A stretch of DNA of 64,000 bases from Octopus vulgaris (GCA_951406725.2 OX597823.1:32488001-32552000), one strand, 5' to 3'; counted from the stretch's first letter, positions 24,101 through 51,454 are shown. Numbers and translations are program-made. The notes: generated by a model not told the origin, from the sequence alone.

Positions 24101-26681
24101 TACAGTTAATAATAAAGAAAGCAGAAACAGTTAGGCTAGTATCCAGAACAGGAATGGCTTGTGAAAGCTTTGTATGCCATGTACATAGATGCCATCTTGT
24201 AAAGTGAGAATTAGCAAAGGGTTCAACGAAGAATCCAGCATGTGGGTAGGTGTCCATTAGGGCTCAATTCTGAGTTCCTTCTTATTCTTCAGATGACAAG
24301 AGAATAGTTTAAAACTTTAAGACTGGCTGTTCATGGAAAGCTCTGTATGCTGGTGGTTTAATTTTCTCAGTTGTTGAAGAATCAAGGAAGAATTTCCACT
24401 TATGAAAGCAAAACCTGATGTCTTCAAGTAAATCTGTCAAAGGCAAAAAGTTTTAGTTAACAGGAAAAAAAACAGAACTCTACTACCACCTGGAAAGGGA
24501 CCATGTTTGATATGTAGAAAAGGAATAGGGTGGAATACCATATGGGTGCACAGCAAATGTAGTGGGATCAAAAACATGCTGGCAGTGTAGAAGGACTTTG
24601 TAAATAGCAAATCAGATGCACAGGAATAATTAACAATAAATGCTTGAAGGGTTCTTTAGAAGAACTTGATAGCTTCTGTTACCTAGGTGGGGGACCTAAT
24701 TAGTAGTGGAAGAGGATATTTTGAAAGTATAGGGAACCAGAATGGGGTGAGAATAGTTCTTTGAGTTTTTATTTCTGCTGACACTAAAGAAAATCTCTCT
24801 CCAAGTGAACACAGATATATTTGTGTATGAAGTGTAATGTTGATAAACATGGTATTGATTGTAAATGTTATGCAAAGGCTAGAAAGAAATGATGCAAGCA
24901 TGCTCCACTGAATATGAAATGTTAGTGTGCACGAATGGCTGAGCAGAAACAAGCCAAGAGAAAAACTGTTTATAACAAGAATCAGTCATGGTGTGCAAGA
25001 GAGAGAATATTAAATCAGTGTGATGTCTGGTGGTTGGATAAAAGAAGGGCCAAACCATTCAAGTGGAAGGAAGCTGTGGAAAAGGAAAACTAAAGAGAAG
25101 ACATAGGAAGAAGTGGTGGATGCTCATCTCAAGATACTGAACCTCATAAAGGAGGTCACAAATGACTGCATTAAAAGGACAAGACATTGCTGTTGCAACA
25201 GAGGTGTTAGTGGTGGCAGCAACTGTTGTTGTTGTTGCTGTTGCTGCTGTTATTTTGGTTCTCTATTTAAAATATTAGATATTTCATATTCATGCAACAA
25301 GCTAACATACCCAGTTTTTACTTGTCTCATATATCAAACCATCGTTGTGCATTCTCTTACAAACCCAGACAATATTATATCATATTCAGCCTTGCCGTGA
25401 ACATTTTCTCAGTCTTTTATGTGAGATAAAGAATACCTGTCATTTAAGCTCATACATCCCTCTAGCCATCCAACACCCCTGAACATGGATCATTCTTGCT
25501 GTATCAATTGTTAGAAATAATAGCGCCATGCAGTATATCGTTAGCCAGCTGCTTAATTAATATGATTATGGACTATGTTGAATGCAACTACCATCTCTGC
25601 AATTATTTCTTCCACAAACTAAATCCTGCTGATAAAGAACATATGTGATGATCATGACTGGAACTCCCCACCTCCTTGATTATAATTCTTCTCTGTCAGC
25701 ATTGACTAGTTGCTAAACAACATCAACACACACACACACACACACACACACTTCCACTCATTCATCTTCATTCTCTCTCTCACACACGCAAATATACACA
25801 TTCACACATCTGCCATATCTTATGACTTTACTGCATGATAAATCAGTTATAAGTAATTAAATAGTAAATTAATTAATCTGTTCATTAATTAATTTATTCC
25901 AGTTGCTAGTTCTACCAGTTCTGACCAGACATATGATGATATTGGGAATACGGTAAGTAGTGTGTGTGTGTGAATATGTGTGCGCACATGTAAATATATG
26001 TATGTATGGCGGTGGTAGTAGTGGTGGTGGTAAGAAAGATTAAGTTGGAAATTTTGAATATCAATCTCTTTTTCATTATGTACATTATTTACATTTGATG
26101 GATATTTGTCCTCATCTTGTTTGTTGTTAACACAACGTTTCGGCTGATATATCCTCCAGCCTTCATCCAGTGTCTTGGGGAAATTTCAAACCACCACCAC
26201 CACCACCACCATCATTCAGGTCACTGCCTGGAATCGAACTCGGAATCTTGGGGTTAGTAGCCCACACTCTTAACCACTACGCCATATGCCCATGGGCAAG
26301 TGTAAAAATAATGTACATAGTTCCTCATCTCTTAAATATAGAACTGTACAATCTCTTTTTGTCTGTCTGTTTGTCTGTCTCTCTCATGTGTGTGTTTGTA
26401 ATACAAACAAACAAAAAAAATGAATTTTGCAACTTGGCAATAAACCCTTAAATAAGATATAAATACATATTACAGTAGTTAATTGGCAGGGATGGGGAAT
26501 GTCACTCTAAATATTGGTTGATATTTCTGGAGACTCTGATGCAAACCAAACAATAATGAGTTATTCTGGTAACAATCCAAAATGTCTCCGGTTCTTAATA
26601 TTGTTGAGAGGTTTCTCACTGAGTTTCCACAACTCTTCACAATCTCCACTGTTGGTAAAAGGCACGTGTGAAACTGCAGGA

Positions 26682-26716
<35 letters not shown>

Positions 26717-26768
26717 GCCTTCTTCTTAATCAAAATGGCAAATTGAGGTGACATATCACAGCAAGAGA

Positions 26769-26799
<31 letters not shown>

Positions 26800-26925
26800 A
26801 TTTGTGTGTATGTGGTTATACATAAGAAGGTGTAGAATATCTGGCAATCTGACAACAAACAAACCTTTAACTGCACCAGATGCACTGCAGTAGCTGACAA
26901 TGTGAACTACTTGGATGTGTGTGTA

Positions 26926-47969: not shown

Positions 47970-49840
47970 CAAAGGACTTCCAGTTTTACCTTAATAGCTG
48001 ACTGAATTATCTCATTGAATGAACAATTAATTGGAAATTCTAAGTCCCAATCAGCCCTTAATATATATTAAACCTATCCACCACTGAACTGCCTAGACTT
48101 TTTTGTAGATTCTTTGTAATTAAATTAATTGATTTAATTAGACATATTTTAATATGGTTTAATCAGAGATCTTTATAGTCAGGGTTTCTGTGAGGTGTGG
48201 GACAAGCAACAAAATATTTCCAGACAGGAGGCGTTGTCTGAATATTTGCAGTAGAATATGCTCTACTAAAAGTACTCAGAGATGCCAGTTGATGGTGTTG
48301 GCTCCGCATAAGTCCCTGCACAGTCTTTCCTCTCCCAAAACATCAACCTTGTGGAATCTTCTCCTTGTTCATGCCTTTCCTGCAGGTGTTGAACTTCAGC
48401 ATTTAAACAAAACATTAATATCATCAATGTTTTAGTCTTGAAGAGCCTGTAAGGATCATAGGAACTGCACCTTCTTCAAAGCTCAGCAAAATAAATAAAA
48501 TAGTAAGAAAAAAAAAAGATCCCTGTTAGTTTGATCAACTGAACCATCCCCTCTGAACTATAAAGCAAATGGCTGAGGTCCCATAGGCACATGTAAATTC
48601 TCAGGCAGAATCAGTGTGTCACAATATGTGACAAGGTTGTACCTTTGAATTACAAGTACAATCAGTTTGATGGGCTTTCTATTCAGGTTTCAAATCTCAC
48701 CAACATCAACTTTGTCTTTCATCCTTCCAGGCTTGATAAGATAAACACCAATCAGTTACTGGTATTTAATTAGTCAACTATTTTCCCCTACCAAGCATCC
48801 AGTCGTGTATCTATAATAGAAATCCTTATTTTGGTTTCATACAACCATTTTGGTTTGATATAACTATCCATTTCTCTGCTACAGATTTCTTATCTTACGT
48901 TCTAACCTGAAATTGGTATTTTAATCAAATTTATCAGATCTTTCTATAAACATTTAGTGTTTTATCTGTTTCTCATTCTGTTTCTTGCTTTGTATTTTTC
49001 CAGTTGACATTTCTCAATAGAATTCAGTCTTTTGGTGTATTCAAAGAATTTCACCGATTTTCTCGTATTGTCTTTAACAATTTAATCTCTGTAGAGAAAT
49101 GCAAGATTGTTACTTTGCTATGGTCCCAAACAGGTTGTAATACAAGTTTGTACATCAGATTTACACATAGAATTATTGTGTGGTTTTTGTTAACTATGTA
49201 AGGGGTCTTGTATGTAGCTAGTAACTTTATTTCAGCAAACACTTGTCATTCTAGAGGTTATACATGTTGTTGTTGTCGAGCATATGAAAACGTCTTGAGG
49301 GTAGATAGTGTTGAGTGTGTATCAGACTACTATCATAGTTTTCTGCATCAGTTGGAATCTAGCAGTGACCAATTTAGTCTTCCATTCCCTTGTGATGTGA
49401 TTATGTATGAACCAGCAGTAAACTAAGATTGTGTTAATTGGTTCTAATCCATTCTTTAAAAAAAAAATTAATTAATAAATTTAAAAAATCTTTAAATACA
49501 CCATTATTATTAATATTGTTATTGTGTTTGCATGAGATTCCCAGAAATTAGACAAAGAAATTTCCATCATGTGTTAGTTTTGGAAGTAGTGACTTGAAGT
49601 TATCCTTGGCTCAACTATGACCATGCAAGATTTGAACCTGTTTTACCTGAAATGAATTTCACCTTCCTTTCTTCCCCATACACCTCCCTAAAACTGTTTG
49701 ACAGGCATGAAAGCCAACAAGTCATAGAACCTCTCCATTGAGTTAGGCATGTACACTGCCCACTTGTGATCATGAGTGCTGCTAAATATGGCCGTTCTTT
49801 AATGCATGGCTTCAAACATTTCTAAACATACATGCTCACA

Positions 49841-49924
<84 letters not shown>

Positions 49925-51186
49925 TATATACATACATTTATTTGTATGTACATTTGTTGTTGTTTTTGTTGATGATGATGATGGTAAGGTAATAGTAATG
50001 GTTATGGTGATGCTGATGGTGGTTGATGGTGGTACCAGCCTGTTAAGTTGATGCCAACTCATTAGTCATTGCCAACAAGTGTATATGTATGCCTGTGGGT
50101 ATTGTGTTTACATGACTGTATGCATGTAGATGTATGTGTGTGTATATGATATTCTGAGGAAATTAAACATCATTAGCTTTACCACTGTCTTTATATGCAT
50201 CACCATGGTAACGTGTGTTGTGTGAGGTAAGTTTTTGATATTGCCAGTTATCTACACCAAGTGGATATGTGAAGATCTTTTAGGATCTGCTATTATGGTG
50301 TTTTGTATTTGTTTTTATTTTTTTATGAGGCTACCCTAAATCTTCCATCTGCTCGGCTGTATGAGTCTGGTAAGGTTTGTCTCAAGATGTCACTACCATT
50401 TGTCTTTAGTGTGTGTGTGTGAGTCTTGTGTATTTATTTAACTGGAGATCTGTTGCTGTAACAATAGCCATTGACAGAATGATATGTCATATTCCAGCAG
50501 ATCTCACTTAGATAGCTGCTGCTTTGTGAAGGACAATATTATATGAGGTCCATAAACCTACATAGCCAAGACCTGCACTTTAGATATAGGTGTTTCTAAA
50601 TTCAATCTCCAGAACCTAGGACCAGTTGCTACAGTTGGCATCCATGTATCTGACAATGCAATTGTAAATTCCAAAAGTGAAGTACATCTGACATTTATTC
50701 TGTCGTAGCTGTACAAAACCATAGATCAAACTTAAGGATTTCTGTCAGATACAAATCTCCAATGAGGGCCTTATTATCCACAGATGTTTGAGGAAGATGT
50801 TTAGTAAGAATATTGCTGAGTTGTTTGATAAATGATAGTTGTTCATAAGTGTTTGACAATAGTATTATTCATAAATGTTTGACAACAAAGTTGCCAACAA
50901 CAGTGAGGCTAGAGAATCTCTGACTGACAAAGTACCAATTAGATGGATGTAATATCTTAACTTAAAAGGAAGAAAATACATATAAGATAAACGGACAAGA
51001 ACACACTTACTTAGATATAAGTGCGAGTATAGAAATACCTTAAGATAAACATATAAATACACTTAGATACATATAGGAACTTATACAGACATGCATATAT
51101 TAGATACGAGCACATATACCTGTGTGAGCATATACATCTACTTACACAGATCTATGCTGGTTGAGATGTACAAACAAATGTGTACA

Positions 51187-51454
51187 CATTATTTACATTT
51201 GACGGATATTTGTCCTCATCTTGTTTGTTGTTAACAGGCATATGGCGTAGTGGTTAACAGTGCAGGCTACTAACCCCAAGATTTCAAGTTCGATTCCAGG
51301 CAGTGACCTGAATAATAGTAATAACATCGAAAAATACCTTAGGAATGAGAACCCAAGTTCGAAATTTCCATAAGATACCTGATGAAGGCTGGACGGTATA
51401 TCAGTTGAAATGTGTTAACAACAAACAAGCTGAGGACAAATATCCATCAAATGT
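51187..51454. mobile_element. Family D: full + strand copy (51237-51454) preceded by a short inverted 3' fragment
   Basis: cattatttacatttgacggatatttgtcctcatcttgtttgttgttaaca, then GGCATATGGCGTAGTGGTTAA...CAAGTTCGATTCCAGGC...cctgatgaaggctgg...ggacaaatatccatcaaatgt. Confidence 0.85.

Follow-up and report, generated by a model that had tools for sequence, protein, structure and literature searches.

A tRNA-like head in the pseudo-long terminal repeat of a Penelope-type retroelement of Octopus vulgaris

Insertions of Penelope elements carry a recognizable signature, a truncated inverted arm with a tail of 30-40 nucleotides (nt) at one end (PMC8557442), and those of Adineta are flanked by target duplications of 8-10 nt (PMC3846280). 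The enzyme of an anole Poseidon element acts on both strands of the target, nicking and extending each, and has two RNA-internal priming sites, which define the tail; it needed RNA beyond the tail region, comprising the first 172 nt of the open reading frame (ORF), and cutting by the ribozyme needed protein and was not required for insertion in vitro (PMC11167929). Whether Penelope hammerheads cut in vivo has been an open question (PMC4209133, PMC11167929). In the two Penelope elements with mapped starts the promoters are internal, of the RNA polymerase II (Pol II) type, and lie in the repeat (PMC2377424; PMC8557442), and coding retrotransposons in general are taken to need Pol II, with RNA polymerase III (Pol III) promoters limited to short non-coding passengers (PMC10886601). 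Non-autonomous derivatives of Penelope elements are also known (PMC8557442; bioRxiv 10.64898/2026.07.22.740005). Here we describe family D, a hammerhead-bearing repeat with six insertions in a 64,000-nt stretch of the Octopus vulgaris genome (GCA_951406725.2 OX597823.1:32488001-32552000, the window), and compare it with these systems.

The majority sequence of the family D unit is 274 nt long and consists of a head (positions 1-74, with an A box at position 8 and a B box near 52), an (AAT)n spacer, a linker, a hammerhead (139-184) and a 3' part with a sharp end and no poly(A). The initial annotation, made from the window sequence alone, had reported the A- and B-box-like motifs, the spacer, a hammerhead consensus and an AT-rich end lacking poly(A), all of which stand as written. 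It had interpreted the unit as a non-autonomous short interspersed element (SINE) that borrows the 3' end of a Penelope element, and it had proposed that the hammerhead is of Penelope type and that mobilization is by Penelope enzymes rather than by a long interspersed element (LINE). The latter proposal was right and the former was wrong. A Penelope gene with reverse transcriptase (RT) and GIY-YIG domains, of the kind that the annotation had suggested looking for, is contiguous with the unit at both ends; the unit follows the ORF stop and precedes the ORF N-terminus, and therefore the whole of it, head included, is the pseudo-long terminal repeat (pseudo-LTR) of an autonomous Poseidon-type Penelope element. 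Two features had been overlooked, namely that the unit is flanked by target-site duplications and that it codes for the N-terminus of the Penelope protein. A SINE is non-coding, separate from its partner and shares just a 3' end with it, whereas the family D unit is itself coding. The family is large: the genome contains 5,180 exact occurrences of a 28-letter hammerhead pattern and none of its reversed control, a one-copy query returned 4,260 candidates (the 40 that were scored are 86-92 % identical, the query itself excepted), and all copies seen are decayed, about 5-12 % away from the majority sequence.

The evidence for contiguity comes from both sides of the unit. At one RT locus (L017) the Penelope RT ends about 30 nt ahead of a complete unit, and among 20 further RT loci, taken from 150 listed and mostly picked for long open frames, 12 reach the end or near end of the ORF and pass directly into unit position 1-7, one jumps from mid-ORF to unit position 139 and seven break off earlier. 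The tail continues in frame into the ORF N-terminus at 30/30 aligned loci, for which the query began in the tail and so favoured matches with that junction. Partial tandems occur at L299 and L309, and at L293 a repeat that starts with head position 1 leads on into the ORF. The monomer, 2,655 nt in length, is made up of the tRNA-like head, (AAT)n, a start codon at position 110, the hammerhead within the coding sequence and a frame with RT and GIY-YIG; the ORF of 838 codons starts upstream of the ribozyme, stays open through it and stops 29 nt ahead of the next head. A majority of 20 copies (83-96 % identical to it) is one open frame with RT and GIY-YIG motifs, and RVT_1 matches were obtained on two natural copies, where Pfam GIY-YIG was not reported and the domain is deduced from the alignment with relatives. 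The homology of the N-terminus extends through the ribozyme codons in the relative P0004 (56 % identity). A short frame from an AUG in the hammerhead core is not the frame of the gene and meets a stop after 25 codons.

The element appears to belong to the Penelope/Poseidon clade and not to Neptune: the Neptune-type insert and the extra zinc-finger linker that separates RT from the endonuclease in such proteins are absent from the alignment, and identity to the Neptune-type proteins of this genome is about 29-31 %. The names Poseidon and Neptune are assigned here from motifs that we take to be diagnostic of these clades. The anatomy of the elements is given in PMC8557442. Many copies that contain the ORF start (L290, L295, L300-L304, L310-L312, L316) have large internal deletions leading from the early ORF into the 3' repeat, and are short two-repeat derivatives. 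Two other candidates for the partner of the unit were rejected. The Neptune-type families found in the first GIY-YIG search include a young one (L061-L067, L079) with an intact 781-codon stretch, which has a different hammerhead, a U3-A8 variant about 850-1,100 nt past the stop, and no similarity to the unit. In a second young family (L144, L171-L206) the unit is cargo in a non-coding amplicon without a Penelope ORF; this amplicon (e.g. L201:774-4309) is about 3.5 kb long, is present in at least 40 copies at about 96-98 % identity, and has no long ORF; it also carries other repeat debris. Its ends may be Helitron-like.

The geometry of the insertions was scored on contig 1, where 78 loci were chosen among the first 100 listed matches to the pattern (68 taken by position and 10 odd-loop picks), of which two (L238 and L239, a duplicated segment) were dropped; L153 (the same insertion as L152), L144 (cargo) and the window or query copies L001, L019, L081 and L287 were also excluded from counts, and flanks were inspected for about 1.5 kb only, so that some mates may lie beyond. 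The 76 loci contain 45 head-to-head pairs, one tail-to-tail pair and 32 unpaired arms, and because of these unpaired arms the statement that the unit is always inserted as an inverted pair fails genome-wide. The 3' ends of the arms fall into two clusters, at about 220-250 and 267-288. Exactly one arm is tailed in 44 of the 45 pairs, where independence would give about half, and two tails are seen in none; the same rule holds in two score-ranked sets (20/20 and 18/18 pairs). Direct repeats of 10-16 nt flank 58/91 pairs, compared with 7/400 mismatched controls. No direct-repeat mate was found within 1.1 kb at 86 loci, and the head-to-tail short-unit arrays that characterize retrozymes are not seen. 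Family D insertions thus carry the known Penelope signature of an inverted truncated arm, a tail at one end and target duplications, and the tail rule together with the duplications gives genome-scale support to the two-strand, two-site priming that had been proposed from in vitro work. The sole tail-to-tail pair (L241), in which both arms are tailed and have mutations and flank in common, suggests a later inversion or duplication.

Within the window all six reported insertions, at 26075, 33900, 38181, 44488, 47550 and 51187, are borne out, each consisting of two opposite, head-to-head arms as follows.

26062..26073, plus strand: insertion 1, target-site duplication of 12 nt, with the second copy at 26349-26360
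26074..26291, minus strand: insertion 1, long arm, pseudo-LTR positions 1-239, with tRNA-like head, damaged spacer and broken ribozyme core; short end, no tail
26306..26348, plus strand: insertion 1, inverted arm, positions 232-274, tail only, 43 nt
33888-33899 and 34391-34402: insertion 2, target-site duplication of 12 nt, one mismatch
33899..34172, minus strand: insertion 2, tailed arm, positions 10-274
34226..34391, plus strand: insertion 2, inverted arm, from the spacer to position 232, short end
38180..38472, minus strand: insertion 3, tailed arm, positions 1-274
38476..38686, plus strand: insertion 3, inverted arm, a fold-back piece of 1-21 and then 66-240, short end; 10-nt duplication, one mismatch
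38584..38629, plus strand: insertion 3, best-preserved hammerhead of the window, with complete stems I and II and a U in place of C3; cut predicted at 38624/38625
44485..44715, no strand assigned: insertion 4, arms of positions 130-231 (minus, 44485-44580) and 101-235 (plus, 44580-44715)
47546..47779, minus strand: insertion 5, long arm, positions 2-242, A and B boxes intact, 3-nt deletion at the predicted cut, short end
47780..47969, plus strand: insertion 5, inverted arm, a head fold-back piece and then 77-272 with tail, 185-224 missing
51186..51236, minus strand: insertion 6, inverted arm, positions 181-231, a 51-nt piece
51237..51454, plus strand: insertion 6, long arm, positions 2-222, no tail
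51237..51309, plus strand: insertion 6, tRNA-derived head, A box 51243-51253, B box 51286-51297
51345..51446, plus strand: insertion 6, Poseidon ORF start codon and first 35 codons, reading across the hammerhead
51374-51416, plus strand: insertion 6, hammerhead with a 3-nt deletion at the cut site

Insertion 5 has a 9-nt target duplication with one mismatch and insertion 6 a perfect one of 15 nt flanking both sides; insertion 4 has no tail and no clear duplication, and neither of its arms has the head. The tail is on one arm in four of the six pairs and on neither in two (44488 and 51187). An intact ribozyme is found in none of the 10 window arms that span it, compared with 10/50 arms at ORF loci. 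The window also contains a tandem array with a 26-nt unit (41334-41824), at least two other tRNA-like SINE families and more dispersed repeats (38810-38976, 51770-51990, 39036-39262 and others).

The tRNA-like head that had been reported for the window insertions is derived from a tRNA, with A and B boxes; it is absent from both arms of the insertion at 44488. It aligns end to end with a genomic tRNA-Arg(TCG) gene at a score of 16-17, where 300 shuffles reach at most 10-11; the comparison set consisted of 30 genomic loci of eight isoacceptor types, with no tRNA-Ile among them, and does not fix the donor. The octopus SINEs OK, OR1 and OR2 are tRNA-derived, as Ohshima and Okada reportedly described in 1994, and tRNA-Arg, the nearest of the sampled tRNAs, is what we take to be the donor of OR1 and OR2. 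ARAGORN and Rfam found no tRNA in the window or in four loci, and the head is not predicted to fold as a cloverleaf. About a quarter of arms begin in or at the (AAT)n spacer, and at L090, L106, L162, L102 and L168 such arms are fused to (AAT)n tails that belong to different repeat families. A tRNA-headed repeat was not found in 80 metagenome Penelope loci, many of whose contigs do not contain the repeat, and the lone A/B-box match in that set (L445) is 2.3 kb away from the Penelope match. Annotation pipelines that rely on tRNA heads are likely to file family D units as SINEs.

An older sister family (L111-L140, L347-L353) has a 351-nt pseudo-LTR whose tRNA-like head is related to that of family D. 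The two families agree in stem II and in having the same pair of 3' ends, whereas the sister differs at core positions where change is tolerated and reads GUA where the cut is predicted. Its own ORF end lies ahead of the head at 4/30 loci, with the tail running into the ORF at one, and a second search found the same order at eight loci; the B box is in the same place after the sister's own ORF. No usable majority sequence was obtained for the sister ORF. The tRNA cassette thus seems to persist in Poseidon terminal repeats across two families, which makes the assumption that coding retrotransposons use only Pol II a testable one. Comparison of the sister head with the sampled tRNAs did not beat shuffles, a point against the explanation favoured below. 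A 9-bp stem that pairs the post-ribozyme segment with the tail is kept in family D and its sister, with the loop changed, and at L024:1004-1470 a sister pair adjoins a family D pair.

The hammerhead of family D has a conserved core, stems I and II and a palindromic stem III, and is a minimal type I structure, although the Rfam hammerhead models give no match in the window or in the four loci. Covariation of stems I and II is seen across eight related repeats, in which 6/9 pairs are changed on both sides and 0/500 shuffles reach the score; the six outside sequences of this set were picked by a hammerhead pattern, which favours pairing of stem II. Inside family D itself no stem covariation is seen. 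When a single copy was folded as two strands at minimum energy, the catalytic dimer did not result. Another hammerhead element, located in (TA)n (L061:4332-4754; L065, oriented 9046-9403), combines a long stem II with a complete stem III; the 15-17-nt motif that it has in common with family D lies immediately ahead of the start codon.

Deletions are concentrated at the predicted cut. In 158 arms, 27 of the 54 deletions of at least 2 nt touch the predicted cut bond, with 26-31 deletions per bond at 176-181, 2-8 at 100-171 and 0-4 at 197-211. They range in size from 2 to 58 nt and affect one arm in nine pairs, both arms in two and neither in 61, and such one-arm deletions of variable size fit an RT that jumps a nick. 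This peak is suggestive of a footprint of hammerhead cleavage in vivo, and it offers a cheap test, applicable in any genome, of cutting by Penelope hammerheads. There are several points on the other side. The cut site has GT microhomology and neighbouring AAC repeats lose 3 nt too, and in the focal arms positions 139-176 were kept constant by the sampling pattern and thereby shielded from deletion. The test on deletions of at least 7 nt gives a P of 0.007 for the main set, but of 0.07 once all sets are included.

The explanation that we favour overall, to which we would assign a probability of roughly 0.55, is that the unit, as the pseudo-LTR of a tRNA-headed Poseidon element, has its RNA started by Pol III at that head, is inserted by two-site priming and is marked by deletions from nick jumping. 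By analogy with the anole biochemistry (PMC11167929), the enzyme would nick both target strands about 10-15 nt apart and prime twice within the RNA, at about position 225-248 and at about 268-280, the latter giving the tail. The two complementary DNAs (cDNAs) would be joined head to head, so that a target duplication encloses a tailed arm and an arm with a short end. A cDNA primed in the first repeat of the RNA would run out at the RNA 5' end and give a SINE-like solo unit, and priming in the last repeat would give copies with coding sequence. A share of the RNAs may be cut after GUU by the hammerhead, acting as a dimer or assisted by protein, and small deletions would arise where RT jumps the nick. 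On this account family D illustrates a way in which a Penelope element can itself give rise to SINE-like repeats.

Judging from sequence features, we give about even odds to transcription of the whole element by Pol III from the tRNA-derived head. With the geometry of type 2 promoters Pol III starts just upstream of tRNA position 1. Among 123 arms 43 reach the head, of which 36 stop at -28 to +12 and seven run at least 300 nt into the ORF, with none between. The sense strand of the monomer contains no TTTT in 2,655 nt, where 4.7 would be expected (P 0.007); TTTT density is 0.62 per kb in the 20 decayed copies compared with 3.1 per kb in 21 related Penelope ORFs whose T content is similar, and two young Neptune copies have 8-9 per 2.3 kb.

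A number of observations weigh against the Pol III reading. The P-value for the missing TTTT is only 0.044 with shuffled codons, the 20 copies are one family and thus not independent, 2/21 control ORFs also have no TTTT and one Neptune piece has a single TTTT in 1 kb. The TTTT gap may reflect a general lack of runs, because GGGG is depleted too (0 versus 3.2 in the monomer, 6 versus 34 in the copies, 30 versus 35 in the controls). The sharp 5' wall marks an RNA start or a fold-back site and not which polymerase was used, and the head boundary is spanned by a small hairpin, which accounts for the short pieces of fold-back seen at numerous junctions and could contribute to the wall. An uncapped Pol III RNA of 2.7 kb would moreover need translating, which stays unexplained. 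RNA sequencing (three runs from one study) shows equal coverage in both directions, and read ends accumulate neither at the head nor at the cut; in the same runs RNA depth over the unit is about 100x that over the ORF interior, following copy number, and the unique flanks of the 47550 insertion are almost without coverage. RNA reads over 47532-47969 of the window and over the pooled family have 20-23 A>G sites, compared with six in contigs of a run that is likely DNA, some of them at 15-33 % as opposed to under 1 % in that run; the excess would fit A-to-I editing of inverted pairs, with other changes RNA-enriched too and individuals differing.

The fullest version of the Pol III account, in which an autonomous coding lineage acquired a tRNA promoter for its terminal repeat, rid 2.7 kb of its coding strand of Pol III terminators and has Pol III transcribe its entire length, with internal priming shedding thousands of SINE-like units and the deletion peak recording cleavage in vivo, is tentative, and we lean against it in that complete form. 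A different view of the same element and insertion mechanism takes the head as an old SINE or tRNA insertion that is merely carried along, with a Pol II promoter in the repeat or cDNA fold-back at the boundary hairpin producing the wall. The mapped Pol II-type starts of other Penelope elements (PMC2377424; PMC8557442) agree with this, palindromes at inverted junctions are known and have been interpreted as self-priming (PMC3846280), a capped RNA would be translated normally, and the depletion of GGGG as well as TTTT and a head without a tRNA fold point the same way. We nevertheless regard it as unlikely, as the wall lies just upstream of tRNA position 1, where Pol III would be expected to start, many arms starting at 1 join an internal point of the mate without a hairpin, a B-box head is kept at the same place in the older sister family, and no TTTT occurs over 2.65 kb, compared with 3 per kb in related elements.

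It is also conceivable that most solo units descend from solo masters, whose short Pol III RNAs are copied in trans by the Poseidon enzyme, so that they would be a true Penelope-dependent SINE. The excess of 36 solo-type over seven ORF-linked ends is above expectation from equal priming in both repeats, which counts against the scheme that we favour and leaves room for such masters; solo copies with a tail possess the promoter boxes along with the two priming zones, the high RNA depth over the unit could be read in the same way, though it follows copy number, and there are the non-autonomous derivatives already described (PMC8557442; bioRxiv 10.64898/2026.07.22.740005). However, the solo (90) and ORF-linked (61) arms have alleles and age in common and no fixed diagnostic site, differing in the number of gaps (more in ORF-linked arms) and in a frequency shift in a 9-nt repeat. 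Neither do unrelated loci among the 115 tailed and the 121 short arms have a foreign 3' overrun in common, other than simple repeats and a single 11-nt match, and several arms that start at the head extend by 5-7 nt into the continuation of the ORF (L012, L022, L148). If the anole enzyme's need for the first 172 nt of the ORF (PMC11167929) holds here, solo copies would not supply them. Solo masters seem unlikely as the main source. A miniature inverted-repeat transposable element (MITE) with terminal inverted repeats, or an ordinary LINE-dependent SINE paired by chance, is refuted by the data; inverted outer ends, flanking duplications and a tRNA head of the sort typical of SINEs are as either would have them, but the arm ends are ragged and unequal, the duplications vary from 10 to 16 nt rather than being of fixed length, the junctions are variable, the RT gene is contiguous at both sides, head-to-head pairs outnumber tail-to-tail ones by 45 to 1, and there is no poly(A) or repeat tail.

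Returning to the tRNA-headed Poseidon element, membership of the Penelope class is shown, and its inverted pairs, tail and hammerhead are known features. Beyond the literature that we found would be a coding element whose terminal repeat contains a tRNA-derived cassette, the missing TTTT terminators, the sharp stop at the head and the deletion peak. In the full-text literature no account of a tRNA-headed Penelope repeat was found, a search that did not cover Repbase, Dfam, SINEBase and most subscription journals, where an entry may exist; a term search of the PMC13282606 supplement returned neither 'hammerhead' nor 'ribozyme'. Possibly the whole element is read by Pol III, and if so this would be the first such case for a protein-coding retrotransposon, with SINE birth inside the parent element.

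Among described systems, family D resembles Poseidon_Ac of the anole (PMC11167929) and Pen2/Pen2a of Adineta vaga (PMC3846280; anatomy in PMC8557442) in its single frame, about 840 codons long, in which RT is followed by GIY-YIG at the C-terminus, and likewise in having a pseudo-LTR that contains the hammerhead and first codons, a 30-40-nt tail on one arm, an inverted 5'-truncated arm, partial tandems and target duplications of about 10 nt. Its hammerhead shows no structural difference from the minimal type I hammerheads of metazoan Penelope elements in the account of PMC4209133, having the same extra base before stem II, first stem II pair of G-C, palindromic 4-nt stem III and short stem I, and differs in the genomic deletion peak at the predicted cut. 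The TRIMp3 elements Cassandra, Helenus and Ajax likewise have a small-RNA-derived Pol III promoter in a retroelement terminal repeat, but are non-coding LTR elements of less than 1.3 kb, whose autonomous partners must use Pol II as stated by those authors (PMC10886601), whereas the family D cassette sits in a coding Penelope element. The schistosome repeats Sm-alpha and Sj-alpha also have a Pol III-type promoter followed by a hammerhead, but they are non-coding tandem repeats with no partner named in the account consulted and do not form inverted tailed pairs (PMC6765202). Non-LTR retrozymes are short hammerhead repeats from Penelope terminal repeats, as are family D solo units, but form head-to-tail arrays and circular RNAs, with no tRNA head mentioned in the portions cited (PMC7229834; bioRxiv 10.64898/2026.07.22.740005), whereas family D solo units occur as head-to-head pairs or single arms. 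The likeness to tRNA-derived SINEs, including OK, OR1 and OR2, is one of type and not of sequence comparison, and lies in the head with its A and B boxes; family D differs from them in having no LINE-type tail and a body of coding Penelope sequence. Set against the Penelope elements described in the sources cited, which have TATA/Inr-like or TATA-less internal promoters, family D alone has a tRNA-derived A/B-box cassette opening the repeat, a sense strand without TTTT, and solo repeats that start at a fixed point.

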